The notes below the pieces were generated by a model. That model was not told the DNA's origin. It saw only the letters and a program-made list of their open reading frames with translations, and made no database searches. A program made the translations under genes and the position numbers. Below, piece after piece: positions 15,796 to 58,336 of a stretch of 64,000 bases of DNA. Position 1 is the first letter of the stretch, and each line of letters starts with the position of its first letter. This DNA comes from Alphaproteobacteria bacterium (lineage in GTDB: Bacteria > Pseudomonadota > Alphaproteobacteria > GCA-2731375), in the NCBI GenBank assembly GCA_965232515.1, contig CBDDPY010000002.1, forward strand, positions 5,216,001 to 5,280,000, read 5' to 3'.

Positions 15796-15809
15796 GCCGG
15801 GCGGGCCGG

Positions 15810-23968: not shown

Positions 23969-23972
23969 GGCC

Positions 23973-24119
23973 TCAGTTCGTCGTTGCCGGACGCCGCTTC
24001 TTCGCGTCCTCCTCGTCCGCGGCCTTCGGCGGATCCTCCAACGGTCCCTTCTTGCCGCAGGCGGACAGTCCGGCCGTGGCCGCGAAAGCGAACAGAATAG
24101 CGAAAATCAGCCGGGTCAT
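23973..24119 (-). CDS. Small lipoprotein, LptM/YifL family (48 aa, below ORF-track cutoff)
   Basis: [31 protein letters not shown]...; lipobox followed by CGxKGPL; ATGA overlap with argH stop. Confidence 0.85.
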
Positions 24120-25516
24120 GCCAGCCGCGCCTTCGCCGCCGCGATCGCCTGCAGCACCTGGCTCGGCGCCGTGCCGCCATAGCTCGTGCGGCTGCGCACC
24201 GAATTCTCGACGCCCAGCACCTCGAACACCTCCGATGTGATCGCCGGCTCGACGCCCGTCATGTCGTCGAGCGACAGCTCGGCGAGGTCGCAGCCGCGCT
24301 GTTCGGCAATCGCCACCAGCCGGCCCGTGACATGGTGCGCCTGCCGGAACGGCAGTCCGGCCGCGCGCACCAGCCAGTCGGCGAGATCGGTCGCCGTGCT
24401 GAAGCCGGCGCCGGCGGCGCTCGCCATGGCATCTCGGTTGACGCCCATGTCCCGCACCATGCCGGCCATGGCGGCGAGCGTCAGCGCCATCGTGTCGGCG
24501 ACCTCGAAAACCGGTTCCTTGTCTTCCTGCATGTCCTTCGAATAAGTCATCGGCAGGCCTTTCATGACAATCAGCAGCGCGTTCAGATCGCCGATCACCC
24601 GGCCGGCCTTGGCGCGGATCAGCTCGGCGGCATCCGGATTGCGTTTCTGCGGCATGATCGACGAGCCGGTGCTGAAGGCGTCGCTCAACTGCACGAAGCC
24701 GAACTGTGCCGACGACCAGTTAACGATTTCTTCAGCGAGCCGCGACAGGTGCGTCGCGCAGATCGCCGCCGCCGCGAGATATTCGATCGCGAAGTCGCGC
24801 GACGCGACCGCGTCCATCGAGTTCGCCATCGGCCGGTCGAAACCGAGCGCCTTGCTGGTCGCCTCGCGGTCGATCGGAAACGACGTGCCGGCCAGCGCCG
24901 CCGCGCCCAGCGGACATTCGTTCATGCGCCGCCGGCAATCGGCGGCTCGGCCGGCGTCGCGCGCAAACATCTCGACATAGGCCATCATGTGGTGGCCGAA
25001 GGTGACGGGCTGGGCCGCCTGCAGGTGCGTGAAACCCGGCATCACCGCATCCACATGGGCCTCGGCCTGGCTCAACAGCGCCCGTTGCAGGTCGTCCAGC
25101 CCGGCGATCAGCTCGTCGAGCGCGCCGCGCACCCAGATCCGGAAGTCGGTCGCCACCTGGTCGTTGCGCGACCGCCCCGTATGCAGCCGGCCGGCCGGCT
25201 CGCCGATGATCTCGGCCAGGCGCGCCTCGACATGCATGTGAATATCCTCGCGCGCCGCCGAATAGGTGAACGTGCCGGCCCGGATCTCGTCTTCGACCTG
25301 GTCAAGCCCTTTCAAGATCGCGTGACCGTCGTCCTCGGTCAGGATTCCCTGGGCGACCAGCATGTTACAATGCGCGCGGCTGCCGGCGATGTCTTCGGCA
25401 TAAAAACGGCGGTCGAAGTCGATGGAGGCGTTGATCCGCTCCATGATCTCCGCGTGGCCTCCGGCGAAGCGGCCGCCCCAGAGCGCATTGGCGTCGCGAC
25501 GCGGCTTGTCGGTCAT
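24116..25516 (-). CDS. argH: Argininosuccinate lyase
   Basis: [39 protein letters not shown] signature. Confidence 0.97.
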
Positions 25517-32462: not shown

Positions 32463-32924
32463 GTGGACGCGCTCAAGCTCGATGAATTGCTGCCTTATCT
32501 CGTGAACCGGCTCGGGCCCAAGGTCGAGGCCGGCTTCGCGGGGCCACTGCGGGCGAACGGCATTACGCTGCCCATGTGGCGGGTGCTGGCGGTGCTGCGG
32601 GTATCGGGGCCGCAGGGCTTGAACGATCTCGGCGCCGGCACCAGCCTGCCCTTGTCGACGCTTTCGCGCCTGGTCGGCGACATGGTCTCGCGCGGCCTGT
32701 TGAGCCGCGTCCGCAAGCCGGACGACGCCCGTGCGGTCGAGGTGGATCTGACCGAGCATGGCCGCGCCGTCGCCGATGCCGTGACGCCGCTGGCGCGGCA
32801 CTACGAGACCGTCATGGCCCGCGGGTTTGCACCGGCGGAGTTGGCCGAGCTCCGGCGTCTGCTGATCAAGCTCTACGCCAATATGGATGGCATCGAGACG
32901 ACTTGGCGAGCGGCCGCCGAGTAG
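32463..32924 (+). CDS. MarR family transcriptional regulator
   Basis: LPYLVNR, MWRVLAVL, STLSRLVGDM, DDARAVEVDLTEHG. Confidence 0.9.
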   Translation: MDALKLDELLPYLVNRLGPKVEAGFAGPLRANGITLPMWRVLAVLRVSGPQGLNDLGAGTSLPLSTLSRLVGDMVSRGLLSRVRKPDDARAVEVDLTEHGRAVADAVTPLARHYETVMARGFAPAELAELRRLLIKLYANMDGIETTWRAAAE

Positions 32925-32953
32925 CGCCGCCGACCGCCGGGAGGGAGAAACCA

Positions 32954-34162
32954 ATGGCGCTCACCGAAGAAACCCGTCGGTTCGACATCTACGATCTGAC
33001 GAGAGAATTCCTCGACGACCCGTTCCCGACCTACCACTGGCTGCGCGAGACCGACTCCGTGCACCGCAACAAGGACGGCACCTACTACATCACGCGCTAT
33101 GACGATGTGACGCGGGTCTACCGCACCAAGTCGATGACCTCGGACAAGACCGAGATGTATGTCGCCAAATTCGGCGAGGGGCCGCTGTTGGAGCAGCACA
33201 CCAATTCGATGCTGTTCAGCGATCCGCCCAATCACACGCGCATCCGCCGGCTGGTGGCGCACGCCTTCACGCCGCGCGCCATGCAGGTGCTGGAGCACCG
33301 CGTCATCGAGCTGGTCGACCGGCTGCTGAACGATTGCGCCGCCAACGGCGGCATGGACCTGATCAAGGATTTCGCCTTCGCGCTGCCGGTCGAGGTGGTT
33401 TGCGCAATGCTCGGCATTCCGCCGGCCGAGCGCGAGCCGCTGCAGCGCTGGTCGAACGCCATCCTGACGCCGCTGGAGCCGGTGGCGACGCCCGAGATGA
33501 TCGCCAAGGGCAATGAGGCGGTGACCGAGTTCAAGGCCTACCTGAAGGATGTGCTGGCCGATCGTCGCCAGCATCCGGAACGCTATGGCGAGGACGTCAT
33601 GGCCGAGCTGCTGGCGGCCGAGGAGGACGGCGACCGGCTGAGCGAAACCGAACTGGTGCAGAACTGCATCTTCCTGCTGAACGCCGGCCACGAGACTACG
33701 ACCAACCTGGTCGGCAACGGCGTCAACGCGCTGCTAGACTTTCCCGACCAGCTCAAGCGCCTGCAGCAACAGCCCGAGCTGATCGACAGCGCCATCGAGG
33801 AAATGCTGCGTTTCGACAGTCCGCTGCAGATCGGCAACCGCGGCGTCTCGGAAACGATCGAGATCGGTGGCGTCACCATGCCACCCGGCACCCAGATCAT
33901 GACCTCGATCGGCGGCGCCAACCGCGATCCCGCCCAGTTCCCGGAGCCCGACCGCTTCGACATCGCCCGCACGCCGAACCGCCACGTCGCCTTCGCCGCC
34001 GGCATCCACGCCTGCCTCGGCGCGCCGCTCGCCCGCATGGAGGGCCGCATCGCCATCGGCCAACTGGTCGAGCGCTTCCCCGACCTGCGCCGCGCCGGCG
34101 ACATCGTCCGCGGCGGCCGCGCCCGCTTCCGCGGCCTCGCTTCGCTGCCGGTCGCGGTTTGA
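32954..34162 (+). CDS. Cytochrome P450
   Basis: DPPNHTRIR, AGHETT I-helix, EEMLR (ExxR), ANRDP, FAAGIHACLG heme-thiolate motif. Confidence 0.95.
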   Translation: MALTEETRRFDIYDLTREFLDDPFPTYHWLRETDSVHRNKDGTYYITRYDDVTRVYRTKSMTSDKTEMYVAKFGEGPLLEQHTNSMLFSDPPNHTRIRRLVAHAFTPRAMQVLEHRVIELVDRLLNDCAANGGMDLIKDFAFALPVEVVCAMLGIPPAEREPLQRWSNAILTPLEPVATPEMIAKGNEAVTEFKAYLKDVLADRRQHPERYGEDVMAELLAAEEDGDRLSETELVQNCIFLLNAGHETTTNLVGNGVNALLDFPDQLKRLQQQPELIDSAIEEMLRFDSPLQIGNRGVSETIEIGGVTMPPGTQIMTSIGGANRDPAQFPEPDRFDIARTPNRHVAFAAGIHACLGAPLARMEGRIAIGQLVERFPDLRRAGDIVRGGRARFRGLASLPVAV

Positions 34163-44779: not shown

Positions 44780-45685
44780 TCAATCCGGGAAGTGGCGCTT
44801 GGCGTCTGCCTTGATGTGGTCGATCAGGACGCGCAGGCGTGGCGGCATCCGGCGGCGGTGCACGTAGGTGGCGGAGATCGTGCCCGGCCGGTGGTGCCAG
44901 TCCGGCAGGATGCGCACGAGGTCGCCATACTTTAATTCGTTCCGCACCGCGTAGTTCGGCAGCAGGCCGGCCGCCGCGCCCTCCAGCACGAACTGCTTCG
45001 CCGTCAGGCCGGAATTGGTCCGGAAGGTCGAGTTCAGCCGCACGGTCAGGTGCTCGCTGTCGCCGCGGTCGAGCGTCAGCCGGTCGAAATCCGGAAAGAT
45101 CGTCAGCGCCACCCAGGGCCGGTGCGCCAGATCGTAGGGCGAGCGCACGGCGCCGACGCGTGCGAGATAAGCGGGCGACGCGCAGGGGATCATGGCGAAG
45201 TCGCAGATTTTCACCGCGTGCAGCTCGGTGTTCTTCAGCCAGCCGACGCGGAAGGCCAGATCGTAGCCGCCCTCGATCAGGTCCGTGATCGCGTCCTGCA
45301 CGTCGAGCTCGACCGAGATCTTCGGATGCGCGGTATGAAACCGCGCGATGCTGCCGGTCAGATAATGCACCGCCAGATTTTGCGAGGCGGTGATGCGGAT
45401 CAGGCCAGACGGGCTCTCCTGCTGCGTTTCCAGCCGGTTCACCGCCGTCGACACCGTGTCCAGCATGGCGCTGCCGGCCTGGCACAGCTCGTCGCCCTCC
45501 TGCGTCACCGAGATCGACCGCGTCGACCGGTTCAGCAGCCGTACCTGAAGCTGCCGTTCCAGGTCCGAGACATGCTGGCTGACCACCGATTTGCTCAGGC
45601 CCAACGCCTCGGCGGCGCCGGTGAACGAGCCGGCCTCGACCACGCGCTGGAAGATGCCGATGCGGTAGAGAATCTTCAGGTCCAT
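44780..45685 (-). CDS. LysR family regulator (DmlR/CrgA-like), divergent from the monooxygenase operon
   Basis: MDLKILYRIGIFQRVVEAGSFTGAAEALGLSKSVVSQHVSDLE...LLNRSTR, CASPAYL. Confidence 0.92.
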   Translation of the reverse strand: MDLKILYRIGIFQRVVEAGSFTGAAEALGLSKSVVSQHVSDLERQLQVRLLNRSTRSISVTQEGDELCQAGSAMLDTVSTAVNRLETQQESPSGLIRITASQNLAVHYLTGSIARFHTAHPKISVELDVQDAITDLIEGGYDLAFRVGWLKNTELHAVKICDFAMIPCASPAYLARVGAVRSPYDLAHRPWVALTIFPDFDRLTLDRGDSEHLTVRLNSTFRTNSGLTAKQFVLEGAAAGLLPNYAVRNELKYGDLVRILPDWHHRPGTISATYVHRRRMPPRLRVLIDHIKADAKRHFPD

Positions 45686-45706
45686 TGTTCGATTATACCG
45701 AACAAT
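45684..45706. promoter_or_regulatory. LysR recognition site overlapping the lysR start codon
   Basis: Perfect inverted repeat ATTGTTCG-ATTATAC-CGAACAAT containing T-N11-A. Confidence 0.7.
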
Positions 45707-45796
45707 CCGTTTCGGCAATGGCCATAGCCGGGCCACGCGCCGCTCCCCTATCGTCTTGGGCAACGATGTTTATCGATTTCTGACGGAGTTCAGTCG

Positions 45797-47026
45797 ATGC
45801 CGGGACCGCTTGATGGCGTACGCATCATCGATCTGACGACCATGTTGTCGGGCCCCTGGGCCACCATGATCCTGGCCGACCAGGGCGCCGATGTGATCAA
45901 GGTCGAGGTGCCAGGCGCCGGCGACCACGTGCGCTCGCTCGGCAATCAGAGCGCCGGCATGTCGGCCATGTTCCTCAACATCAACCGCAACAAGCGCTCG
46001 GTGACGCTGGACCTGAAATCGGACGCCGGCAAGGACCTGCTGCGGCGGCTGGCGAAGACGGCCGACGTGTTCGTGCAGAATTTCCGCCCCGGCGTCGTCG
46101 ACCGACTCGGCATCGGCTACGACGACATCGCAGCCGTCAATCCGTCAATTCTGTATGTCTCGATCTCCGGCTTCGGCGAGGCCGGGCCCTATGCCGGCAA
46201 GCCGGTCTACGACCCCGTGATCCAGGCGGTCTCCGGCCTGACCACCGTGCAGGCCGGCTCGGACGCGGAACGGCCGCGGCTGGTGCGCACGGTCCTGCCG
46301 GACAAGGTCTCGGCCATCACCGCCGCGCAGACCATCGCCTCGGGCCTGTTCGCGCGCGAGCGCACGGGCCAGGGCCAGCACGTCAAGCTGTCCATGCTCG
46401 ACGCCGTGCTCGCCTTCCTGTGGGCGAGCGACTTCGGCGCGCAGACCTATCCCGAGCGCCCGACCACCAACCAGGCGGCCGCCAGCTTCATCGACCTGAT
46501 CTACGAAACCAGCGACGGTTTCATGACCGTCGCGGTGATGAGCAACAAGGAGTGGGTGGCGCTGACCCGGGCGCTCGGCAGGCCGGAATGGCTGGAGGAC
46601 GAACGGTTCGCGACGCCGTCGGCCCGCGACCGCCATGTCGACGAGCGGCTGCAGATGACGCAAGAGGTGCTGAAGACACGCACGACGGCAGAGTGGCTCG
46701 AACGTCTCGAGGCCGAGGGCGTGCCCTGCGCGCCGGCGCTGACTCGCAACGAGGTGATCGATTTTCCGCAGGTCGTCGCTGGCGACTCCATCGTCGAGTA
46801 TCGGCATCATGCCGCCGGTCTGCTGCGCCAGGCGCGGCCGCCGGCGCGCTACCAGCAGACACCGGCCGAGATCCGCGTCGGCGCGCCGCTGCTGGGCGAG
46901 CACAATGAAGAGATCCTGTCCGAGATCGGTCTGTCGGAAGCCGAGATCGGGCAATTCAGGGCCAGCGGCGCGATCGGCGCCGAGCAGCAGGCCCGCGCCG
47001 CCGACATGTCCGCGGCGGACGACTAA
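45797..47026 (+). CDS. isoG: Family III CoA-transferase (CaiB/BaiF), IsoG-like
   Basis: PLDGVRIIDL...GPWATMILADQGADVIKVE, NRNKRS, QNFRPG, YDPVIQA, APLLGEH; first gene of the G-H-I-A-B-C-D-E-F operon. Confidence 0.8.
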   Translation: MPGPLDGVRIIDLTTMLSGPWATMILADQGADVIKVEVPGAGDHVRSLGNQSAGMSAMFLNINRNKRSVTLDLKSDAGKDLLRRLAKTADVFVQNFRPGVVDRLGIGYDDIAAVNPSILYVSISGFGEAGPYAGKPVYDPVIQAVSGLTTVQAGSDAERPRLVRTVLPDKVSAITAAQTIASGLFARERTGQGQHVKLSMLDAVLAFLWASDFGAQTYPERPTTNQAAASFIDLIYETSDGFMTVAVMSNKEWVALTRALGRPEWLEDERFATPSARDRHVDERLQMTQEVLKTRTTAEWLERLEAEGVPCAPALTRNEVIDFPQVVAGDSIVEYRHHAAGLLRQARPPARYQQTPAEIRVGAPLLGEHNEEILSEIGLSEAEIGQFRASGAIGAEQQARAADMSAADD

Positions 47027-47055
47027 GGCAAGCGCTCGGGGGGAGAGACGGACGC

Positions 47056-47736
47056 ATGGCAACCTATCTGATCGTCGGCAGCGACCGCGGCATCGGCCTG
47101 GCCATCTGCGAGCAGTTGCACGCGCGCGGCGACGAAGTTATCGCCGCCTGTCTCGGCAACGGCGACGACCTGACCCGCCAGGGCATCCGGGTGATCCGGC
47201 AGATCGACGTGACGTCGGACGAGGCCGCCCAGCGGCTCGGAGAGACTCTGCGCGGCGACGACATAAGCCTCGACGTCGTCATTCACGTCGCAGGCGTGCT
47301 GGGGCTGGACGAGCTCGGCAACATCGATTTCGACGACGTCCGGCGGCAGATCGAGATCAACACCATCGGTCCGTTGCGCATCGCGCAGGCCGTCCTCGAC
47401 CAGCTCGGCGAGGGCGCGAAGCTCGGCATCGTCACCAGCCGCGTCGGCTCGCTCGCCGACAACGGCAGCGGCGGCATGTACGCCTACCGGGTCTCGAAAT
47501 GCGCTGCCAACATGGTCGGCCTCAACCTGCACCATGACCTGGCGAAGCGCGGCATCTCAGTGCTGCTGCTGCATCCCGGCATGGTCGCGACCGATCTGAC
47601 CAAGGATCTGCCGGGGGACTTTGACTACATCCAGCCAACCGAAGCCGCGGCCGGCCTGATCCGCAACATGGACGAGCTGACGCCGGAGACGGCGGGCCGG
47701 TTCCGGCACGCGAACGGGGACTATCTGCCGTGGTGA
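47056..47736 (+). CDS. isoH: Short-chain dehydrogenase, IsoH-like (glutathionyl-alcohol dehydrogenase)
   Basis: GSDRGIG, TSRVGS, YRVSK, HPGMVATD; 226 aa; between the CoA-transferase and GST genes as in iso clusters. Confidence 0.78.
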   Translation: MATYLIVGSDRGIGLAICEQLHARGDEVIAACLGNGDDLTRQGIRVIRQIDVTSDEAAQRLGETLRGDDISLDVVIHVAGVLGLDELGNIDFDDVRRQIEINTIGPLRIAQAVLDQLGEGAKLGIVTSRVGSLADNGSGGMYAYRVSKCAANMVGLNLHHDLAKRGISVLLLHPGMVATDLTKDLPGDFDYIQPTEAAAGLIRNMDELTPETAGRFRHANGDYLPW

Positions 47737-47832
47737 GGTGCGGAACGTAAAGCCGTTTGATCCGCCAAGAAAACGCCCGGCCGGCAACGCATTCGGTTAT
47801 CGGGGTCGAAAAACGAAGGGGAGGACGATCAC

Positions 47833-48585
47833 ATGATGAAGGTCTATCAATACGTGCCAGGCTGGACCGTCGCCTGCATCAGTCCCTATGTCTCCAAGCT
47901 CGCGAACTATCTGCGCATGGTCGGACATCCGTTCGAGCTGGTACAGCAGGACCTGTCGCGCCTGCAGGAAGACGCGCCGCGCGGCAAGCTGCCGTTCATC
48001 ATCGACGATGACGGCACCAAGGTGGCGGATTCCAACGAGATCATCGCCTATCACAAGGCGAAATACGGCGACAAACTCGACGCCGACCTGACGCGGGAAG
48101 AAAAGGCCGTGGCCACGGCCTGGATGCGGCTGATCGACGAGCACCTCTACTGGTCCGGCGTCATTCAGCCGCGCTGGCGCATGGACGACGGCTGGGAAAC
48201 CTATGTGCCGATCATCTGCGGCGGCGCCACCGAGATTCCGGCCGAGGTCCGCGAAGGCCTCGACGCCTTCCGCGTCCATATCCGCGACGAGTTCGTGCAT
48301 CAGGGCATGGGCCTCAAGACCGACGAGGAAGTCCTCGAGACCTTCAAGGTCGATGTCGACGCCATGGAAGACTTCCTGCACCACAAGAGCTTCTTCATGG
48401 GTCCGAACCCGACCTCGATCGACGCGGCCGTGTTTTCGATCCTGACGCATATGATCGAAAGCCCGTTTGCCTGGCCGGGGCGCGATTACATCCGCGGCAA
48501 GCAGTCGTTCGTCGACTACATGGCGCGCATGCGAGAACGCTTCGATCTTGATTTCGGCATTGCGCCGGGGGCCGAAGCCGCCTGA
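47833..48585 (+). CDS. isoI: Epoxide-conjugating glutathione S-transferase, IsoI-like
   Basis: MMKVYQYVPGWTVACISPYVSK resembles the recalled IsoI N-terminus; PRGKLPFI, VADSNEII, DEHLYW, PTSIDAAVF. Confidence 0.78.
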   Translation: MMKVYQYVPGWTVACISPYVSKLANYLRMVGHPFELVQQDLSRLQEDAPRGKLPFIIDDDGTKVADSNEIIAYHKAKYGDKLDADLTREEKAVATAWMRLIDEHLYWSGVIQPRWRMDDGWETYVPIICGGATEIPAEVREGLDAFRVHIRDEFVHQGMGLKTDEEVLETFKVDVDAMEDFLHHKSFFMGPNPTSIDAAVFSILTHMIESPFAWPGRDYIRGKQSFVDYMARMRERFDLDFGIAPGAEAA

Positions 48586-48710
48586 CGGCGGGCCATCGGC
48601 CATGCGCGGGCCGCAGCCCGCATCTCCACTTTTTGCCGCCGCACCGCACGTGCCGGCCGGCCCGCGCGCGGCCGGCCGCAGCGGGCGAGGTCATCTCGAA
48701 AGGACCTGAT

Positions 48711-50207
48711 ATGGCATTGCTTAATCGCGACGACTGGTACGACATCGCCCGCGACGTCGACTGGACCTTCAGCTACGTCGACCGGGACGAGGCCTTCCCC
48801 GAGGAATGGGTCGGCGCCAAGGGCATTCCGCTCGAAGCCTGGGAGGATTGGGAGGAGCCGTTCCGGGTCTCCTACCGCGACTACGTCAAGGTCCAGCGCG
48901 AGAAGGAAACCGGCGTCGGCGCTATTCGCGACGCCATGATGCGGGCCAATCTCTACGCCCATCTCGATGCCGGCCACCAGGCTTCGTCGCATCTGCACAT
49001 GGGCACGACCTGCATGGTCGAGCAGATGGCCGTCACCATGCAGAGCCGCTTCTGCCGTTTCGCCCCGTCGCCGAAATGGCGCAGCCTCGGCGTGTTCGGC
49101 ATGCTCGACGAGATCCGCCACGCCCAGCTCGACATGCGTTTCTCGCACGACCTGTTGAAGGACGAGCCGCGGTTCGACTGGTGTCAAAAGGCGTTCCACA
49201 CCAACGAGTGGGGCGTGATCGCGGTCCGGAACTTCTTCGACGACGTCATGCTGAACGCCGACTGCATCGAGGCGGCGCTCGCCACCAGTCTCACCGTCGA
49301 GCACGGCTTCACCAACATTCAGTTCGTGGCGCTGGCGTCGGACGCCATGGACGCCGGCGACATCAACTTCTCGAACCTGCTGTCCAGCATCCAGACCGAC
49401 GAGGCGCGTCACGCCCAGGTCGGCTTCCCGACGCTCGACGTGATCATCAAGCACGATCCCGCCCGCGCGCAGCGGATCATCGACATCGCCTTCTGGCGCT
49501 CGGTCCGGCTGTTCCAGACGCTGACCGGCACGGCCATGGACTATTACACGCCGGTCGAGAAGCGGAAGATGTCGTTCAAGGAGTTCATGCTCGAGTGGAT
49601 CGTCAAGCACCACGAACGCATCCTGCGCGACTACGGCCTGAAGCTGCCGTGGTACTGGGACAAGTTCCTGCTGGCCCTCGACCACGGCCACCATGCGCTG
49701 CAGATCGGCACCTGGTTCTGGCGCCCGACGCTGTTCTGGAAGCCGAACGGCGGTATCTCCAAGGCCGAGCGCCGCTGGCTGAATGAGAAGTACCCGTCCT
49801 GGGAAGACAGCTGGGGCGTGCTCTGGGACGAGATCATCAAGAACATCCGCGCCGGCCGAATGGAAAAGACCCTGCCGGAGACGCTGCCGGCACTCTGCAA
49901 CCTGACGCAGTTGCCGCTCGGTTCGGCTATCGACCGGCATCACCTGGCCAAACACCAGGTCGAGTACCAGGGCCGCGTCTATCACTTCGATTCCGACGTC
50001 TCGCGCTGGATCTTCGAACTCGAGCCTGATCGCTATGCCGGCCACATGAACGTCGTCGACCGCTTTATCGCCGGTCAGATCCAGCCGATGAACCTGGAAG
50101 GCGGCCTCAACTGGATGGGCCTGACGCCCGATGTGATGGGCGATGACGCCCACGACTATCGCTGGGCTCTGGACGAGGCCGAGCAGCCGTTGCAGGCGGC
50201 CGAATGA
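48711..50207 (+). CDS. isoA: Soluble di-iron monooxygenase hydroxylase alpha subunit (alkene/isoprene monooxygenase, XamoA/IsoA-like)
   Basis: MALLNRDDWYDIARDVDW N-terminus; di-iron ligands VEQMA, DEIRH, EHGFTN, DEARH; C-terminal YHS-like region; 498 aa. Confidence 0.93.
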   Translation: MALLNRDDWYDIARDVDWTFSYVDRDEAFPEEWVGAKGIPLEAWEDWEEPFRVSYRDYVKVQREKETGVGAIRDAMMRANLYAHLDAGHQASSHLHMGTTCMVEQMAVTMQSRFCRFAPSPKWRSLGVFGMLDEIRHAQLDMRFSHDLLKDEPRFDWCQKAFHTNEWGVIAVRNFFDDVMLNADCIEAALATSLTVEHGFTNIQFVALASDAMDAGDINFSNLLSSIQTDEARHAQVGFPTLDVIIKHDPARAQRIIDIAFWRSVRLFQTLTGTAMDYYTPVEKRKMSFKEFMLEWIVKHHERILRDYGLKLPWYWDKFLLALDHGHHALQIGTWFWRPTLFWKPNGGISKAERRWLNEKYPSWEDSWGVLWDEIIKNIRAGRMEKTLPETLPALCNLTQLPLGSAIDRHHLAKHQVEYQGRVYHFDSDVSRWIFELEPDRYAGHMNVVDRFIAGQIQPMNLEGGLNWMGLTPDVMGDDAHDYRWALDEAEQPLQAAE

Positions 50208-50226
50208 ACCGGACAGGGAGGATGTA

Positions 50227-50493
50227 ATGGCCTTGTTTCCCATTATCGGCCGCTTCGACGGCGACTTCGTGCCGCACCTGGTGGCGGTCGACACCGAGGA
50301 CTCGATGGATCAGATCGCCGAGAAGGTGGCGGTCCATAGCGTCGGCCGCCGCATGCCGGTCAACCCTGACGCCAGCGGCTACGAAGTGCTGCTGGACGAC
50401 CGGGTGCTGGACGGCGGCCAGACGCTCGAGGCGCTGATGGGCGAGACGCCTGTGCCGCCGCTGCAATGGTTCGACGTCAGGTGGAAGACGTGA
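50227..50493 (+). CDS. isoB: Monooxygenase gamma subunit (XamoB/IsoB/TmoB family)
   Basis: MALFPIIGRFDGDFVPHLVAVDTEDSMDQIAEKVAVHSVGRR; 88 aa. Confidence 0.9.
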   Translation: MALFPIIGRFDGDFVPHLVAVDTEDSMDQIAEKVAVHSVGRRMPVNPDASGYEVLLDDRVLDGGQTLEALMGETPVPPLQWFDVRWKT

Positions 50494-50843
50494 CGGACGC
50501 CGCTACGGTCGTTCCAATCAGCGACGTCACATACGTCGAGATCTGCGCCGAGGACGAGCTGTGGGATGGCGAGATGGACGCCTTCGATGTCGGCGAGCAC
50601 GAGGTGCTGCTGATCCGTCTCGACGGCCGCTATCACGCCTACGACGGCATCTGCCCGCATCAGAGCGTGTCGCTGGTCGACGGTGAGCTGACCGAAGCCG
50701 GCGTGCTGATCTGCAGCGCCCACCAATGGCAGTTCGACGCCGCCTCCGGCAACGGGGTCAATCCGGCGACGGCCTGCCTGAAGCGCTTTCCCGTGAAAGT
50801 CGAGGACGGCCGCGTGTTCGTCGGCGATCAGCCGTTGGGCTGA
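50490..50843 (+). CDS. isoC: Rieske [2Fe-2S] ferredoxin (XamoC/IsoC/TmoC)
   Basis: CPHQ...CSAHQWQFD Rieske ligands; GTGA coupling to isoB. Confidence 0.92.
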   Translation: MTDAATVVPISDVTYVEICAEDELWDGEMDAFDVGEHEVLLIRLDGRYHAYDGICPHQSVSLVDGELTEAGVLICSAHQWQFDAASGNGVNPATACLKRFPVKVEDGRVFVGDQPLG

Positions 50844-50872
50844 CGCCGCGGACCGCGAAAAGGGAGAACGAC

Positions 50873-51184
50873 ATGAACGAAACAGCCGATGCCGCTGAGG
50901 GTATGAACGAAGACTTGGTCGGCCCGGTGATCCGCGCCGGCGATCTGGCCGAGGCCGTGATCGACGCCGTGGCCGAGGACAACCCGCACAGCGAGGTGAC
51001 CGTCGTGGACCGCGGCGACTACGTGCGCATCCACACCGAGCGCGAATGCCGGCTGACAAAATCGTCGCTGGAAAAGCATCTCGGCCGGGACTTCGATCTC
51101 GCGCTCCTGGAAGCGGAGATGCCGTCCTTCAAGGGCCGCATGCGCTCCAAATGGGACGAGATGGTCTGGTTCTACAGCAACTGA
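50873..51184 (+). CDS. isoD: Monooxygenase coupling/effector protein (XamoD/IsoD/TmoD)
   Basis: VGPVIRAGDLAEAVIDAVAEDNP...VDRGDYVRI...LEAEMPSFKGR. Confidence 0.92.
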   Translation: MNETADAAEGMNEDLVGPVIRAGDLAEAVIDAVAEDNPHSEVTVVDRGDYVRIHTERECRLTKSSLEKHLGRDFDLALLEAEMPSFKGRMRSKWDEMVWFYSN

Positions 51185-51217
51185 CGCGGCCGTTGACCGG
51201 CCCGAGGAGAGGAAGAC

Positions 51218-52243
51218 ATGGCACAGCCAGCCGGCAACCGGCGCGAACGGCGCCGCAAGACCTGGAGCGCGCTGGGCGATCTCGGCCGCAAGCCGACGGA
51301 ATACGAGATCGTCACGCACGGCATGAACCATACCGGCGGCGAGACGCCGCTGGAGATGGGCCCCGACGTCCACGGCAATGCCTGGCTGAAGAAGTATCGC
51401 GACGACATCGCGCTGAAGGTCGGCAACTGGGACGAATTCCGCGATCCCGACCAGCTCACCTACGGCAAATACGTCCGCCTGCAGGACGAGCAGGAGGCCT
51501 ATATCGACAACCTGCTCGAGGAGTACACCGAGCGCAAGCCGTCGGACGAAAAGCTGTCGAGCACGGCGCTGGCGTTTCTCGGTTCATGCCTCACGCCCGG
51601 CCGCTATCTGGTGCACGGCCAGCAGATGATGTCGGCCTATATTCAGCAGATCGCGGCTTCGAGCTACGTCGCCAACGGCGCCTCGTTCCAGGCCGCCGAT
51701 CAGCTGCGCCGGGTGCAGCGCATCGCCTACCGCACCAAGCAGCTCGATCTCGCGCATCCGACCCACGGCTTCGGCAGCAGCGAGCGCGGGATCTGGGAGA
51801 ACGAGCCGCTCTGGCAGCCCATGCGCCAGGCGGTCGAACGGTTGCTCGTCACCTTCGCCTGGGACGAGGCGCTGATCGCCACCAATCTCGTGGTAAAGCC
51901 GATCTGCGACGACATCTTCCTGCGGCAGTTTGCCCGGGTCGCCTGGTCGCTCGACGACGGCCTCGACGCGCTGATCGCCGACAACCTCTATCGCGATGCC
52001 GAGCGGCACCAGCGCTTTATCGTCGCCGCCTGCCAGCACGCTATCGCCGCCGACCGGGCGAATCGCGACGTGATCTGGGGCCATGTCGAGGCCTGGCAGG
52101 AGACTGGCGAGGCCATCATCGTATCCGGCGCCAAGCTGATCACGCAGCACGCTGACGGCATGGTCGCGGGCGAGATCGAGGCCGAATTGCGAAGCGCTTG
52201 GCAGCAGCTGCTACGGGACGCCGGCCTGACCCACGATGCCTGA
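51218..52243 (+). CDS. isoE: Monooxygenase hydroxylase beta subunit (XamoE/IsoE/TmoE)
   Basis: KTWSALG..RKPTEYEIVT, WDEFRDPDQLTYGKYV, FQAADQLRRVQRIAYR, NLVVKP. Confidence 0.92.
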   Translation: MAQPAGNRRERRRKTWSALGDLGRKPTEYEIVTHGMNHTGGETPLEMGPDVHGNAWLKKYRDDIALKVGNWDEFRDPDQLTYGKYVRLQDEQEAYIDNLLEEYTERKPSDEKLSSTALAFLGSCLTPGRYLVHGQQMMSAYIQQIAASSYVANGASFQAADQLRRVQRIAYRTKQLDLAHPTHGFGSSERGIWENEPLWQPMRQAVERLLVTFAWDEALIATNLVVKPICDDIFLRQFARVAWSLDDGLDALIADNLYRDAERHQRFIVAACQHAIAADRANRDVIWGHVEAWQETGEAIIVSGAKLITQHADGMVAGEIEAELRSAWQQLLRDAGLTHDA

Positions 52244-53267
52244 CGGCGGCGCCGGGGCACGGTCGTATCGGATCACGCTGTCGGGCAGCGGCGCGACGTT
52301 CGATTGTCGGTCCGACGAGACGTTGCTGCGGGCCGGTCTCGCCGCCGGTCTGGCCATGCCGTATGAATGCGCCAGCGGCGCCTGCGGTTCCTGCAAGGCG
52401 CGGCTGGTCGACGGCGAGGTGAACATGCGCTGGCCGGACGCCCCCGGCCTGTCGGCGCGCGACCGGGCGAAGGGCAACCGTATCCTCTGCTGTCAGTCCC
52501 TGCCGACCGAGGACTGCACCATCAACGTGCGGGCCGAGGCCGGCAGTCCGGAACCGGCGCCCCGTCCGATATCGGCCGAGGTCGCGGAGATCGCCGACCT
52601 CTGCGACGGCGTGCGCCGGATCGTGCTGACCACCGCGACGCCGATTGATTTCCTTGCCGGTCAGTTCGTGCTGCTACGCCTGCCGGGCGACGGCGGCTAC
52701 CGCGCCTATTCCATGGCCAACGCGCCGGCGGGCACGACAGACCTGATTCTCCTGATCAAGGCCAAGCCGGGCGGCCAGGCAACGGCGCATTTGTTCGATC
52801 GCATGGCCGTTGGCGACGGCGTCGATCTCGAGGGTCCCTATGGGCGGGGCTATTTGCGCGAGGACAGCGACCGGCCGCTGATCGCCGTTGCCGGCGGTTC
52901 GGGGTTGGCGCCGATGCTGTCGATCGTGCGCCGCGCGGTCGGTCTGTGGCCGGACAGGCCGGTGCATCTCTATTTCGGCGCCGACACGCGGGCGGCGCTG
53001 TTCTGCCTCGACGAAATCGCCGCACTGGCGGCGCTGTTTCCCCGCTTCCGTCCGACGCTGGCGTTGCGCGATGGCCGGCCGGACGCCGGTTCGCTGCCTG
53101 TCGAGACCGGCCTGGTCGGCGACGTCATGTTGCGCGGCGAACCCGACCCGCAGGGAGCGGACCTCTATCTCGCCGGGCCCGGCGGCATGGTCGATGCCGT
53201 GCTGGCCCAGACCGTCCGCGCCAACGCCATCCCCGCCGACCGCGTGTTCTTCGATCGCTTCGTTTGA
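52236..53267 (+). CDS. isoF: NADH:ferredoxin reductase (XamoF/IsoF/TmoF)
   Basis: CASGACGSC...ILCC [2Fe-2S], RAYS FAD motif, AGGSGLAP, C-terminal FFDRFV. Confidence 0.92.
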   Translation: MPDGGAGARSYRITLSGSGATFDCRSDETLLRAGLAAGLAMPYECASGACGSCKARLVDGEVNMRWPDAPGLSARDRAKGNRILCCQSLPTEDCTINVRAEAGSPEPAPRPISAEVAEIADLCDGVRRIVLTTATPIDFLAGQFVLLRLPGDGGYRAYSMANAPAGTTDLILLIKAKPGGQATAHLFDRMAVGDGVDLEGPYGRGYLREDSDRPLIAVAGGSGLAPMLSIVRRAVGLWPDRPVHLYFGADTRAALFCLDEIAALAALFPRFRPTLALRDGRPDAGSLPVETGLVGDVMLRGEPDPQGADLYLAGPGGMVDAVLAQTVRANAIPADRVFFDRFV

Positions 53268-53277
53268 GCAAACCGCC

Positions 53278-54423
53278 GTGACCCACGATCCGGATCGCTT
53301 CGAGCGCAACTTCATCGGCGGCCATTGGGTCTTCACCCGCGAGGGCTACGACTTCGACATCTACGATCCGTCCAACAGCCGGGTCATCGGAACCGTGCCG
53401 CTGTCGTCGCGCTTCGACGTCGCCCGCGCCGTCGCCGCGGCCGAGGCGGCGCTGCCGGACTGGTCGGGACGCGCGGCCGCCGACCGCGCCGCCATCGTCT
53501 TCCGCGCCATATCGCTGATGGAGGCGGATCTCGACGCCATCGCCGCGCTCGAAGCCCGCGACACCGGCCTGCCGGTCATCCAGGCTCGCGCCGAGATCGC
53601 GGCCGCGCTGGCCCGGGCCGGCACGACGCGGCAAGCCGCGTCGCGGCCCGCCGGCGTGGTCGGCCAGATTCTGTCCTGGAGTGGCCCGTTCGCGCATGCC
53701 TGCCGCACGCTGCTGCCGGCGCTCGCCGATGGCGACGCGGTCGTCGTCAAACCGTCGCTGCGGGCGCCCCTGTCGCTCGTCCGGTTCGCCGAAAGCCTGC
53801 AGGCGACCGGCCTCCCGGCCGGCGTTCTCAATCTGGTGCAGGGCACGGGCATCGACGTGGGCGCCGCGCTCGCCGCGCATGCCGGCCTGTCCGAGCTCGG
53901 TTTCCAGGGCTCGCGCCAGACCGGCAGGAGCGTCACGCGCGCCGCGGCAAACAACGACACACCCTTGCAGTCCGCCTTCCGCCACCCTGTCCGGACAATC
54001 GTGCAGGCCGACACCGACCTCGATGCGACGATCGGTGACATCGCCGACAGAACTCTGGGCCACGCCGCGCGTGCCGGCTATGGCGGCCAGATCGTCCAGA
54101 TCGCGCCATCCCGCATTGATGACCTGATGACCGGGCTAACAGGGATCTTCGATGCCGTGCGCTACGACACCGCGTCGCAAGGATCGGGCTCGATCGCGCC
54201 CATGATCGCCGAGACCTACCGCGACGCGCGGCGGGCGCTGTTGGACGAATTCCGCGAGGCGGGCGTCGAAACGCTACATACCGGCCCGGAACCGTCGGCC
54301 CGGATCGCGCGCATGGGCTGGTTCGTGCCGCCGGTGATCCTGCGCGACGACGCGCAAACCATCGACATCGACGGCGATCAGCCTCTTGGGCCCACCGTGA
54401 TCCTACGAGTGCTCGCCGGTTAG
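53278..54423 (+). CDS. Aldehyde dehydrogenase-fold protein lacking catalytic residues (pseudoenzyme or decaying gene)
   Basis: ALDH-like NFIGGHW, DVARAVAAAEAA, VVVKPS, LPAGVLNLVQG, FQGS; but SWSGP for PWNFP, SAFRHP for LELGGK, HAARAGY for NAGQxC; 381 aa. Confidence 0.75.
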   Translation: MTHDPDRFERNFIGGHWVFTREGYDFDIYDPSNSRVIGTVPLSSRFDVARAVAAAEAALPDWSGRAAADRAAIVFRAISLMEADLDAIAALEARDTGLPVIQARAEIAAALARAGTTRQAASRPAGVVGQILSWSGPFAHACRTLLPALADGDAVVVKPSLRAPLSLVRFAESLQATGLPAGVLNLVQGTGIDVGAALAAHAGLSELGFQGSRQTGRSVTRAAANNDTPLQSAFRHPVRTIVQADTDLDATIGDIADRTLGHAARAGYGGQIVQIAPSRIDDLMTGLTGIFDAVRYDTASQGSGSIAPMIAETYRDARRALLDEFREAGVETLHTGPEPSARIARMGWFVPPVILRDDAQTIDIDGDQPLGPTVILRVLAG

Positions 54424-56087
54424 TTCCGGCTTTCCAGCAGGCGGCGGGCGATGACCTGGGCCTGGATCTCGCCGGCGCCCTCGAAGATGTTGAGGATGCG
54501 GGCGTCGCAGAGCACGCGGCTGATCGGGTATTCCAGCGCGAAGCCGTTGCCGCCGTGGATCTGCAGCGCGTTGTCGGCCGACGACCAGGCGACCCGCGCG
54601 GCCAGCAGCTTGGCCATGCCGGCCTCCAGATCGCAGCGTCGGTCCTGATCCTTCTCGCGGGCCGAGAAATAGACGAGTTGGCGCGCCATCATGGTCTCGA
54701 CCGCCATCCAGGCGAGCTTGCCGTGCACGCGCGGGAACTCGAAGATGGCGCCGCCGAACTGCTGCCGCTCGTTGGCGTAGGCGAGCCCTAAATCGATGGC
54801 GCTCTGAGCAACGCCGACGGCGCGCGCCGCGGTCTGGATGCGGGCCGACTCGAAGGTCGCCATCAGCTGCTTGAAGCCGTGGCCCTCCTGGCCGCCCAGC
54901 AAGTTTTCGGCTTTCACTTCGAATCCGTCGAAGCCGAGCTCGTATTCCTTCATGCCGCGATAGCCCAGCACCTCGATCTCGCCGCCCGTCATGCCGGCGG
55001 CCGGGAACGGCTCGGCGTCGGTGCCGCGCGGCTTCTCGGCCAGGAACATCGACAGGCCGCGATAGCCGGCCTCGTCCGGATCGGTCCGGGCCAGCAACGT
55101 CATCAGGTCGGCGCGCGCCGCGTGCGTGATCCAGGTCTTGTTGCCGGTGACCTTGTAGACCTCGCCGTCGCGCACCGCGCGCGTGCGCAGGCTGGCGAGA
55201 TCCGAGCCGGTATTGGGCTCGGTGAACACTGCCGTCGGCAGGATCTCGCCGCTGGCGATCTTCGGCAGCCATTTTTGCTTCTGTTCCTCGGTGCCGCCGC
55301 ACATGATCAGCTCGGCGGCGATCTCCGAGCGGGTGCCCAGCGAGCCGACGCCGATATAGCCGCGGCAGAGCTCCTCCGAGACCACGCACATCGCCATCTT
55401 GCCCATGCCGTGGCCGCCATAAGCTTCCGGGATCGTCAGGCCGAACACGCCGAGTTCATTCATCCGCTCGATCACGTCCATGGGGATCAGCTTGTCGCCC
55501 AGGTGCCAGTCGTGCGCGTCGGGGGTGACGTGGTCGACGGTGAAGCGGCGGAACTGGTCGCGCACCATGACCATGGTGTCGTCGAGGCCGTCCTCGCCGA
55601 AATGGCCGTCGCGGATCAACTCGCCGATGCGGCCGCGGACCGCCGCCGTGTTGCCGTTGCGGATCAGCTCGGCCACCGCCTCGGTCCAGAAGGCGTGGAT
55701 CTCGTCGTCGCTCAGGCCCAGGTCGGCCGGACGCACGACCTCGACCTGGCTCATCGCGATGCCGCCGGCCATCTCGGCCAGATAGCCTCCGAAGCCGGCC
55801 CGCAGCATCAGGCTCTCCAGCTCGCCGAACCGGCCCTCAGCCTGCAGGCGCTCGGCCCAGGCCAGCGACTGACGCAGCGCTTCGAGATAGGTCGCGTACC
55901 AGGCGAAGCCGTGTACGGCGAACTGCTGCTGGTTGATCAGGCCCGCGTCGATCCGGCCGTCGCGGCCGACCAGCGTGCGCAGCCGCTGGCGCGCAGCCTC
56001 GACCAGCCGCTCGGCCGCGTTCAGCACCTCGCGATAGGTGGCGGGAATGTCGTGCGCGTGCGTGTCCGAGGCCGGTTGGAGCGACAT
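54420..56087 (-). CDS. mcd: (2S)-methylsuccinyl-CoA dehydrogenase (ethylmalonyl-CoA pathway)
   Basis: 555-aa ACAD with N-terminal extension QQFAVHGFAWYATYLEALRQ, PTAVFTEPNTGSDL, IEVLGYRGMKEY, NIFEGAGEIQ. Confidence 0.85.
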   Translation of the reverse strand: MSLQPASDTHAHDIPATYREVLNAAERLVEAARQRLRTLVGRDGRIDAGLINQQQFAVHGFAWYATYLEALRQSLAWAERLQAEGRFGELESLMLRAGFGGYLAEMAGGIAMSQVEVVRPADLGLSDDEIHAFWTEAVAELIRNGNTAAVRGRIGELIRDGHFGEDGLDDTMVMVRDQFRRFTVDHVTPDAHDWHLGDKLIPMDVIERMNELGVFGLTIPEAYGGHGMGKMAMCVVSEELCRGYIGVGSLGTRSEIAAELIMCGGTEEQKQKWLPKIASGEILPTAVFTEPNTGSDLASLRTRAVRDGEVYKVTGNKTWITHAARADLMTLLARTDPDEAGYRGLSMFLAEKPRGTDAEPFPAAGMTGGEIEVLGYRGMKEYELGFDGFEVKAENLLGGQEGHGFKQLMATFESARIQTAARAVGVAQSAIDLGLAYANERQQFGGAIFEFPRVHGKLAWMAVETMMARQLVYFSAREKDQDRRCDLEAGMAKLLAARVAWSSADNALQIHGGNGFALEYPISRVLCDARILNIFEGAGEIQAQVIARRLLESRN

Positions 56088-56989: not shown

Positions 56990-57058
56990 CGCTTTGCCAC
57001 CACGTCGCGGGTCGATATCGCATGCTTCGAGACGGGTCCTTCGGACCCTCCTCAGGAT

Positions 57059-58235
57059 GGAGACCTTTGCACGGTTTTGGGAAGCGTGATTCACTGACGG
57101 TATAGGGGCTGTCGGTGAGGGTTTGAGATGTCTCGCAAGCGTGTTGGTCAGCTGGGGTTTGAGGACGCGGTTGTCGAGGCGCGGCTTGGCGCTCGGTTCG
57201 ATCGGCTGTCGAAGATCAATGATCTTGTGGACTGGCGGCCGTTTGAGGCGCTGCTGGAGGGGCTTTATCCGTCGCGTCGGGGCGAGCCGTCTTATCCGGC
57301 GCTGATCATGTTCAAGGTGCTGCTGTTGCAGCGCTGGTACAATCTGTCGGATCCGATGATGGAGGAGGCGTTGGCGGACCGGATCTCGTTCCGTCGGTTT
57401 GTCGGTCTGAGCCTGAGCGATCCGGTTCCCGATCACTCGACGATCCACCGTTTCCGGGACCGTCTACGCGGGGCGGCGCGTCTTGAGGCGCTGATGGGGG
57501 AGTTGTCGCGTCAGCTCGAAGCGCACCAGGTCGTGCTCAAACAAGGCACGTTGATTGATGCCAGCCTGGTGAGCAGCGCGGCGCGGCGGCCTCGGATCAA
57601 GGAAGGCCGGACCAGCCGGACCGATCCGGATGCGCGCTTTGGCACCAACAACGAGCGCCGGCGCTATAGCTTTGGCTACAAGCTGCATGTGGCCGTGGAT
57701 CAGGGCTCGGCGCTGATCCGCGGCCTGTTTCTGACGCCGGCCAATCGCCAGGAGATCGACTTTGCCGCCGATTTGGTTCAGGGCGACGAGCAGGCCGTCT
57801 ATGCCGACCGTGGTTATGACGCCCGGCGCCTGCGCGATCATCTGGCGGCGCTCGGCATCGCCGACGGGGTCATGCGCCATGCCCGTAAAGGCAGGCCGCT
57901 CAACGCCGAAGAGACCGCCCGGAACCACCGGCTGGTGGCCCGGCGCCGACCGGTCGAGAAGATCTTCGGCACCCTCAAACGAAGCTACCGCCTCAGCCGC
58001 CTGCCGCATTTCAGCCAAGCACGCAACGAAGTCACCGTCACGCTCGCCTGTTTCGCCTACAACCTGCGACGCCTCGCCGTCCTCTGCGCAACTTGAGGCC
58101 GCTCGATATCGACCTCATCGACAGCAAACAGGCCTCAAGCCGGTCAGCGGCTCGAAAACAGGCGCGATCGCCGCTAACAACCCAGCGCCAAGCTCGAACA
58201 TAGCGACAAACAACACCTACCGTGCAAAGGTCTCC
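57059..58235 (+). mobile_element. IS5-family insertion sequence (IS5/IS1106-like ends)
   Basis: Perfect 17-bp terminal inverted repeats GGAGACCTTTGCACGGT (57059-57075) / ACCGTGCAAAGGTCTCC (58219-58235) around a single transposase gene. Confidence 0.93.
57128..58096 (+). CDS. IS5 family DDE transposase
   Basis: MFKVLLLQRWYNLSDP, PDHSTIHRFR, TLIDASLV (D), VYADRGY (D), RPVEKIFGTLK (E); intact frame. Confidence 0.95.
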   Translation: MSRKRVGQLGFEDAVVEARLGARFDRLSKINDLVDWRPFEALLEGLYPSRRGEPSYPALIMFKVLLLQRWYNLSDPMMEEALADRISFRRFVGLSLSDPVPDHSTIHRFRDRLRGAARLEALMGELSRQLEAHQVVLKQGTLIDASLVSSAARRPRIKEGRTSRTDPDARFGTNNERRRYSFGYKLHVAVDQGSALIRGLFLTPANRQEIDFAADLVQGDEQAVYADRGYDARRLRDHLAALGIADGVMRHARKGRPLNAEETARNHRLVARRRPVEKIFGTLKRSYRLSRLPHFSQARNEVTVTLACFAYNLRRLAVLCAT

Positions 58236-58336
58236 AGCATGAGGTAAGGCATTGATGTCAAACCCAAACCTCATCCTGAGGAACGCCCGTCAGGGCGTGT
58301 CTCGAAGGATGCGCTATCGGGTTCCGATCTGAGTCG

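Follow-up and report, generated by a model that had tools for sequence, protein, structure and literature searches.

A reduced iso-type gene cluster for alkene oxidation in an alphaproteobacterial lineage without cultured isoprene degraders

[quoted passage not shown] In a 64,000-nucleotide stretch of alphaproteobacterial DNA (hereafter the window; positions 5216001-5280000 of contig C2, which holds 7.33 Mb of the 7.39-Mb genome G000 at 65.5% G+C), we examined a cluster of eleven genes at 44780-54423, comprising a divergent LysR gene and ten co-oriented genes on the plus strand, which a preliminary description had presented as a hybrid alkene/isoprene oxidation system. Our analysis shows that the cluster is a real, reduced variant of the known isoprene degradation (iso) cluster, located in a lineage without cultured isoprene degraders. 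We consider it probable that this is a genuine iso-type, glutathione-dependent, LysR-controlled alkene oxidation operon, with isoprene as the likeliest substrate; the substrate, every enzymatic step, the regulation and the support of growth are predicted from sequence. The preliminary observation was confirmed, and its interpretation was supported in part.

The cluster encodes a complete monooxygenase and glutathione-side enzymes

All eleven genes were found with the content, order and divergent regulator first described. The features are as follows.

44780-45685, minus strand: LysR-type transcriptional regulator (Pfam HTH_1 and LysR_substrate), divergent from isoG
45684-45706, no strand: palindrome ATTGTTCG-N7-CGAACAAT with 8-nt arms that are 100% complementary (repeat search)
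45797-47026, plus strand: isoG, family III CoA-transferase (CoA_transf_3, E 1e-113)
47056-47736, plus strand: isoH, 1-hydroxy-2-glutathionyl-2-methyl-3-butene dehydrogenase of the short-chain dehydrogenase/reductase (SDR) type (NCBIfam NF049951 equivalog)
47833-48585, plus strand: isoI, isoprene-epoxide glutathione S-transferase (NCBIfam NF049950 equivalog)
48711-50207, plus strand: isoA/xamoA-type di-iron hydroxylase alpha subunit, 498 aa (Phenol_Hydrox and YHS domains)
50227-50493, plus strand: isoB, hydroxylase gamma subunit, TmoB family (PF06234; start refined)
50466-50843, plus strand: isoC, Rieske-type ferredoxin (PF00355)
50873-51184, plus strand: isoD, effector/coupling protein, MmoB/DmpM family (PF02406; start refined)
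51218-52243, plus strand: isoE, hydroxylase beta subunit (Phenol_Hydrox)
52236-53267, plus strand: isoF, NADH:ferredoxin oxidoreductase with 2Fe-2S, FAD and NAD domains (Fer2, FAD_binding_6, NAD_binding_1)
53278 (GTG)-54423, plus strand: aldh2-type protein of the aldehyde dehydrogenase (ALDH) fold, 381 aa (Pfam Aldedh)

The six-component monooxygenase is complete in the window in the order isoABCDEF, and its metal ligands are intact, as had been claimed. In the alpha subunit, whose open reading frame (ORF) opens at 48633 with the actual ATG at 48711, the di-iron ligands are E104, E134, H137, E197, E231 and H234, at positions that we take to be those of ToMO and T4MO. The Rieske protein IsoC carries CxH...CxxH, and the reductase IsoF carries Cx4Cx2C...C and RxYS. 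Relative to the 94% identical cluster of a second genome of the same genus (our locus L004), the iso genes had dN/dS values of 0.09-0.24 and the ALDH-like gene one of 0.34, with purifying selection on all eleven genes as estimated from these two genomes of one genus. On the regulatory side, the longest ORF of the LysR gene spans 44780-45763 on the minus strand, and its likely start is ATG 45685, judged from the position of the helix-turn-helix domain. The palindrome lies at this gene start, inside the 111-bp divergent intergenic region, and is a putative binding site for the LysR-type transcriptional regulator (LTTR). A scan with consensus promoters returned no sigma-70-like sites, and terminator-like sites were found only at chance level.

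To place the glutathione-side genes, curated models and the proteins of the isoprene degrader Variovorax sp. WS11 (taken from our locus L007) were used. IsoH scored 371 bits on NF049951 (cut-off 350) and IsoI scored 350 bits on NF049950 (cut-off 300), the latter being the genome's sole match above that threshold; in the 14 control genomes, nothing exceeded the cut-off of the IsoI model. The best genome matches of WS11 IsoG, IsoH, IsoI, IsoA, IsoE and IsoF were the window genes, at 71, 66, 49, 77, 53 and 47% identity, respectively, and the runner-up for IsoH was only 33% identical. Since IsoH and IsoI exceed their cut-offs and the WS11 proteins have their best matches here, the glutathione route is real, and the earlier view of these three genes as iso orthologues is upheld. 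The assignment of IsoG rests on context, because no curated model exists for it and a paralogue that is 66% identical to WS11 IsoG occurs elsewhere in the genome. This second CoA-transferase (G000 C2:303781-304962; L119 7776-8963) has a peptide ABC transporter and an IS5-family transposase as neighbours and no iso context, and was judged unrelated. The window IsoI resembles its actinobacterial counterparts (50-56%) more than the betaproteobacterial ones (45-50%), and glutathione synthesis domains were found in the genome.

The preliminary description had noted that genes for coenzyme M (CoM) synthesis or epoxide carboxylation were missing from the window, and this holds for the genome as well. 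ComA (PF02679) had no match in the whole genome, and the genome homologues of xecA and xecC of Xanthobacter Py2 are only 27-29% identical. The genome has no CoM route.

The alpha subunit belongs to a clade that includes XamoA and has an IsoA-type pocket

At E <= 1e-50, a protein search with 8000 scored candidates yielded 854 proteins. Three metagenome proteins are 94-97% identical to the alpha subunit, and a tight group is 82-84% identical to it; its identity is 77% to WS11 IsoA, 76-77% to XamoA of Py2, 70-74% to IsoA of actinobacteria and about 50-51% to TouA/TmoA-type (toluene monooxygenase) sequences. Residues 1-19 are identical to those of Py2 XamoA, while WS11 IsoA differs at two of the first 18, confirming the remark that the N-terminus is essentially that of XamoA.

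A scan of species-representative genomes gave 80 loci, 76 of them with a full-length alpha. We built a quick tree of 85 alphas, with four partial alphas omitted, and a careful tree of 51 alphas, from which 34 rows (distant sequences of the 50% type and near-duplicates) had been dropped. In both trees, the window alpha formed one clade with those of L004, L005 and L006, the protein P0009 and XamoA (SH-aLRT 99 in the quick tree; UFBoot 100 and SH-aLRT 99 in the careful tree). An IsoA/XamoA supergroup (100/100) encloses this clade, with the aromatic monooxygenases as outgroup across that branch. A placement of XamoA nested in the glutathione-linked alphaproteobacterial sequences, compared with one as sister to them, gave p 0.064 in the approximately unbiased (AU) test; the groups for the AU tests were named only after inspection of the tree. 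In a FastTree analysis of 111 rows, the window clade contained 16 rows (support 99), 14 of which share M76, R173 and S210 together with T100, C101 and V196; XamoA keeps the first three residues but has I100, T101 and L196.

At the pocket positions, which we take to be those known from work on T4MO and ToMO, the window enzyme has T100, C101, V172, V196 and T270. Of the 14 other alphas linked to isoGHI that were compared, 13 have the same pocket, L033 having V270; at position 101, L013 departs with G. XamoA departs at positions 100, 101, 172, 179, 196 and 270, with I100, T101, T172, L196 and A270 among its residues. Judged from the trees and the alignment, the window enzyme is of the Xanthobacter alkene monooxygenase (XAMO) lineage by descent and IsoA-like by its pocket. 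The proposed affinity to XamoA thus stands as far as the shared 100/99 clade and a common seven-gene module (see below) are concerned, but the identity to WS11 IsoA is equal and the pocket is of the IsoA type.

The top matches among solved structures are the alphas of ToMO and T4MO (E 1e-172), and many database relatives are labelled toluene monooxygenase, as would be expected of a four-component aromatic (toluene or benzene) monooxygenase with unrelated neighbours. We regard this reading as extremely improbable: the identity to such enzymes is about 50%, they fall outside the 100/100 branch, their pocket differs (I100, A101 and F196 in the aromatic-type loci compared), and isoGHI run in the same direction as the oxygenase genes and are closely packed with them. 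On the trees and the identity, an aromatic monooxygenase was rejected, and the alpha phylogeny, which the preliminary description had proposed as a check, groups the protein away from TmoA and TouA.

The layout combines features of several known clusters

Two or more of isoG, isoH and isoI occur in 24 of the 76 loci whose alpha is full-length; this is not so in 32 loci despite adequate flanks, and 20 lie on contigs that are too short to judge. Glutathione genes are the common state in the alpha clade of the window, being present in 4/4 members with context, and isoJ is absent between isoI and isoA in all four (the window, L004, L005 and L006). L004, a GenBank contig of a metagenome-assembled genome (MAG; our genome G001), has the identical order from isoG to the acyl-CoA dehydrogenase (ACAD) gene that follows the cluster, with the individual proteins 77-95% identical. 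L005 and L006, also MAG contigs, likewise carry isoG, isoH, isoI, isoA-E and the short ALDH-like gene without isoJ, but their LysR gene stands between isoG and isoH and their IsoI is 47-49% identical to that of the window. In L005 (6027-14844) and L006 (6023-14738), isoE is followed directly by the ALDH-like gene, with no isoF found in the 21-kb locus; the same isoE-to-ALDH-like junction occurs in the actinobacterial loci L015, L035 and L037. The claim that the system is a hybrid therefore fails in the sense of a recent combination, as glutathione genes are common in the clade and XamoA is its divergent member. In our reading of the trees, the window clade should be described as a third IsoA clade, with XamoA branching from it, rather than as a hybrid.

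Like the window, the WS11 cluster has a divergent LysR gene and co-oriented isoG, isoH and isoI followed by isoABCDEF, and the betaproteobacterial iso clusters match the window in the isoGHI-ABCDEF order and divergent LysR, apart from the isoJ and catalytic aldH (aldH1 type) that they carry between isoI and isoA. WS11 differs in having its own isoJ and a catalytic aldH between isoI and isoA, in lacking an aldh2-type gene after isoF, in being borne on a megaplasmid and in the position of its alpha in another clade. Actinobacterial clusters also have isoJ, and many have an aldH1-type gene. With Rhodococcus AD45 and other Gram-positive clusters the window shares an aldh2-type gene directly after isoF, whereas these clusters contain isoJ, aldh1, gshA/gshB, a CoA-disulfide reductase and MarR regulators, and their aldh2 is longer (about 450-460 aa).

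The XAMO cluster of Py2 (pXAUT01, Xaut_4857-4863) is a seven-gene module of A-F plus a 387-aa ALDH-like protein without the catalytic Cys and Glu, to which the window proteins A, B, C, D, E, F and ALDH-like are 77, 72, 63, 51, 53, 57 and 43% identical, respectively (IsoB matching Xaut_4858). IsoB, IsoC and IsoF are nearer to Py2 (72, 63 and 57%) than to WS11 (51, 51 and 47%), and IsoE is 53% identical to both beta subunits alike. Unlike the window module, which is linked to isoGHI on a chromosome, that of Py2 is plasmid-borne and linked to 2-hydroxypropyl-CoM lyase, 2-ketopropyl-CoM oxidoreductase/carboxylase (2-KPCC), SDRs and phosphosulfolactate synthase.

Among Alphaproteobacteria, isoABCDEF with glutathione genes has been reported from Sphingopyxis sp. 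OPL5 (PMC7600658, PMC12917321), the sole cultured iso-type degrader of this class met in the literature as far as the available text of these sources goes. OPL5 differs from the window in that it reportedly has all ten iso genes with aldH1 between isoJ and isoA; its proteins reportedly group with those of other Gram-negative degraders, and it was not among the loci compared here. No published description of the layout of the window, or of the clusters L004, L005 and L006, was found in a search whose scope did not extend to supplementary lists of MAG iso clusters or primer tables.

The ALDH-like gene appears to encode a conserved pseudo-dehydrogenase

The ALDH-fold protein of the window covers positions 7-373 of the 461 of the Pfam Aldedh profile (PF00171), and the last ~90 residues of the fold are absent. 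Aligned with PDB 4ywe and with AldH1 proteins, it has other residues in place of the general-base Glu and nucleophilic Cys, A and G standing at the catalytic columns (the ELGG and GQxC motifs of catalytic ALDHs). The gene is thus present and co-oriented, as described, but its product is short and lacks both catalytic residues. In an alignment of 123 rows (120 database matches and three references), 58 rows, two of them fragments, lack both residues, including all closest matches, and the other 65 have both. Alignment of 22 short ALDH-like forms revealed 68 invariant positions, and these, together with the dN/dS of 0.34, indicate that the protein is constrained and not debris.

Xaut_4863 (43% identical) stands directly after xamoF on pXAUT01, before the xec/CoM genes, and the downstream ALDH of Rhodococcus WS4 is likewise without Cys and Glu. 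Among the aldh2-type proteins encoded after isoF or xamoF (window; L121 16596-17759; L020 ~14666-16009), Cys and Glu are gone in every close member examined, and conserved Arg and His/Gly motifs occupy the catalytic sites. Of the 37 loci in which 3.8 kb or more follow isoE, 18 have the short ALDH-like gene, although one of these, L012 (23% identity), is doubtful; 12 of the 17 loci with isoGHI and 6 of the 20 without have it, and save for L012 no betaproteobacterial locus among the 37 does. In Rhodococcus AD45, aldh2 is reported as highly induced by isoprene and, in 2015, without close database relatives (PMC4676930), and the available text of another source lists it as an accessory gene of Gram-positive clusters (PMC7271495). 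From the alignments, the aldh2-type protein looks like a conserved pseudo-dehydrogenase associated with both isoprene monooxygenase (IsoMO) and XAMO. Because the gene accompanies both glutathione- and CoM-linked monooxygenases, we infer that its role is tied to the monooxygenase. The isoprene-induced aldh2 of Rhodococcus itself appears to be a pseudo-enzyme, also conserved beside XAMO, which points in the same direction.

Missing genes and other points against an isoprene pathway

Several observations weigh against isoprene as the substrate or against a complete pathway for it. The gap between isoI and isoA is 125 bp and holds no gene, so that isoJ is lacking there. Searching the genome with WS11 IsoJ returned 25 glutathione S-transferase (GST) matches, the best being 42-50% identical, and in a tree of 30 rows no genomic GST fell inside the IsoJ clade (21 cluster-encoded IsoJ, 87/91). 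No aldH1-type gene was found either, as WS11 AldH matches only genomic ALDHs of 29-37% identity (best 35-37%). WS11 no longer grows on isoprene once isoJ or aldH has been deleted, according to the available text of PMC9804861. As for the alpha subunit, it lies outside both validated IsoA clades, the betaproteobacterial (WS11, Ramlibacter WS9) and the actinobacterial; forcing the window and L004 alphas into the betaproteobacterial clade was rejected (AU p 0.0006); and its only characterised clade-mate, XamoA, is a propene enzyme. The equivalog models for IsoH and IsoI could also accept enzymes acting on conjugates of other small epoxides. Finally, the existence of IsoA-like alphas (69-72% identical) without isoGHI means that alpha alone defines neither the substrate nor a glutathione pathway. 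Such alphas, with no isoGHI in the flanks examined, occur in Streptomyces, uncultured Actinomycetota and gammaproteobacterial MAGs (L023, L030, L036, L038-L041, L044, L045, L047 and L071, the flanks of L036 and L044 being short).

A first alternative is that the operon oxidises another small alkene (propene, butenes, butadiene or chloroethenes), as XAMO does, and uses glutathione instead of CoM to detoxify or assimilate the epoxide, isoprene not being the physiological substrate. The 100/99 clade with XamoA and the common M76, R173 and S210, the closeness of B, C and F to Py2, the module with a short ALDH-like gene in both, and an accessory set without isoJ and aldH1, unlike that of every validated isoprene degrader, are all in line with this. 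IsoH and IsoI, however, exceed cut-offs that are specific for isoprene, and the pocket matches validated IsoA while differing from XamoA at 5-6 positions. In addition, the literature, as far as its available text shows, contains no isoGHI-type glutathione route for short linear epoxyalkanes. We consider a different alkene unlikely.

A second alternative is a reduced or partial pathway that only co-oxidises and detoxifies alkene epoxides and stops at a glutathione or CoA conjugate, without supporting growth. The isoJ and aldH deletion mutants of WS11 that fail to grow still consume isoprene when given pyruvate (PMC9804861, available text), and neither gene has an orthologue here. On the other hand, all eleven genes are under purifying selection in the two genomes compared, the isoJ-less layout is retained in the more distant L005 and L006, and the genome could supply six Nu-class GSTs and several ALDHs in trans. 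The six Nu-class GST paralogues of G000 fall outside the IsoJ clade, alongside a GST that adjoins isoG in L005; this isoG-adjacent Nu-class GST pairs with G000 C2:2642481-2643143 (100/97) and is thus orthologous to it. A pathway that ends short of growth seems quite unlikely to us, and an isoprene-oxidising, glutathione-dependent operon remains the reading that we prefer. Growth on isoprene is nevertheless uncertain, because isoJ and aldH1 are essential in WS11 and have no orthologue here. The preliminary proposal of a minimal glutathione pathway was accordingly right about the glutathione genes, which are real, but did not account for these two WS11-essential functions.

Proposed pathway and implications for isoA surveys

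In the proposed mechanism, the IsoABE hydroxylase would epoxidise isoprene, with electrons passing from NADH through IsoF to the Rieske protein IsoC and with the effector IsoD tuning the reaction. IsoI would open the epoxide with glutathione to form HGMB (1-hydroxy-2-glutathionyl-2-methyl-3-butene), IsoH would oxidise HGMB to GMBA (2-glutathionyl-2-methyl-3-butenoate) in two NAD+-dependent steps, and IsoG would form the CoA thioester (GMBA-CoA). Removal of glutathione, the task of IsoJ in known degraders, may here be performed by one of the genome's six Nu-class GST paralogues, whose genes lie outside the cluster, and the carbon would then enter beta-oxidation-like routes. The biochemistry of these steps follows what the available text of PMC10057887 and PMC9804861 describes for known degraders.

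Published isoA primers were compared with the window in silico, as the preliminary description had suggested. Primer isoA14F matches 48727-48744 without mismatches, and primer isoA511R matches 49224-49243 with two adjacent mismatches 4-5 bases from its 3' end, on the codon of Arg173. The number of isoA511R mismatches is three in L004, L005 and L006, one in WS11 and none in WS9, Rhodococcus WS4 and Gordonia OPL2. The product predicted by coordinates is 517 bp, for the window and positive controls alike; the primer paper quotes 497 bp (PMC6286570, available text). The same source reports Py2, which served the designers as negative control, as giving no amplification. The Py2 alpha shares Arg173 with the window, and it is plausible from these mismatches that the window clade is under-detected by isoA14F/isoA511R.

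Surveys take it for granted that isoGHIJ and aldH always accompany isoABCDEF and that the guild is covered by isoA primers (PMC12141778, PMC10057887), and these sources and PMC12917321, in their available text, regard the set of isoGHIJ and aldH as invariably, or almost invariably, present. The window clade breaks both survey assumptions, having no isoJ or aldH1 and a primer mismatch at a codon shared with XamoA. It also connects the Xanthobacter CoM pathway with the glutathione pathway by way of a common monooxygenase module, which provides a concrete test case for the swapping of epoxide-handling modules. A more far-reaching reading, which we put forward tentatively and hold to be rather doubtful as a whole, is that isoABCDEF with a catalytically dead ALDH-fold protein forms a portable seven-gene module that can be coupled to isoGHI or xec, that XAMO descends, as a derived branch, from an isoprene-type lineage of Alphaproteobacteria, that the dead ALDH is a dedicated monooxygenase accessory and not a pathway dehydrogenase, and that uncultured Rhodospirillales-like bacteria assimilate isoprene without IsoJ and AldH1 and escape the standard isoA primers.

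Host lineage and genomic surroundings

The best named cultured matches of the ArgH protein are 70-71% identical and Rhodospirillales-like. By this marker the host lineage would be alphaproteobacterial, Rhodospirillales-like and without a close cultured relative, in agreement with the earlier statement that it was not known for isoprene degradation. When a cluster gene was searched for in 60 relatives, it was found in G001 only, that is, in one of 32 genomes of the family, and one genome from another family had a homologue at 45% identity.

The G+C content is unremarkable. Regarding island borders, tRNA genes are absent from the window and no flanking direct repeats were found; the four relatives compared show no synteny across the left flank (sugar ABC transporter, mannitol dehydrogenase). 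On the right, the ACAD gene (54420-56087, minus strand) was considered as a cluster member and rejected, because it belongs to the core genes of the family, with 25 of 32 genomes having it; in the relative G006 it keeps the neighbours gluQ, HADH and HNH without any iso genes. An IS5-family element at 57050-58244 (transposase 57128-58096; 26-nt terminal inverted repeats at 92%) splits the ACAD gene from gluQ, an adjacent pair in G006, and a second copy of the IS5 transposase lies at C2:310639-311607. The window also contains housekeeping genes at 11650-13992, 20199-25516 and 32576-34162 (a class II-type ribonucleotide reductase with TSCPD; DUF4175-lysA-argH; a cytochrome P450), and such neighbours fit a chromosomal location.

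Two small contigs of the assembly, C3 (5516 bp) and C4 (10862 bp), have 46% and 42% G+C, respectively, compared to 65.5% for the chromosome, and may be foreign or contaminant DNA. The genome further encodes a second, distant soluble di-iron monooxygenase at C2:1147600-1154900 (our locus L120), whose alpha is 28% identical to that of the window; this locus also holds a reductase, a catechol 2,3-dioxygenase and a 2-hydroxymuconic semialdehyde dehydrogenase, and represents a phenol hydroxylase/meta-cleavage cluster.

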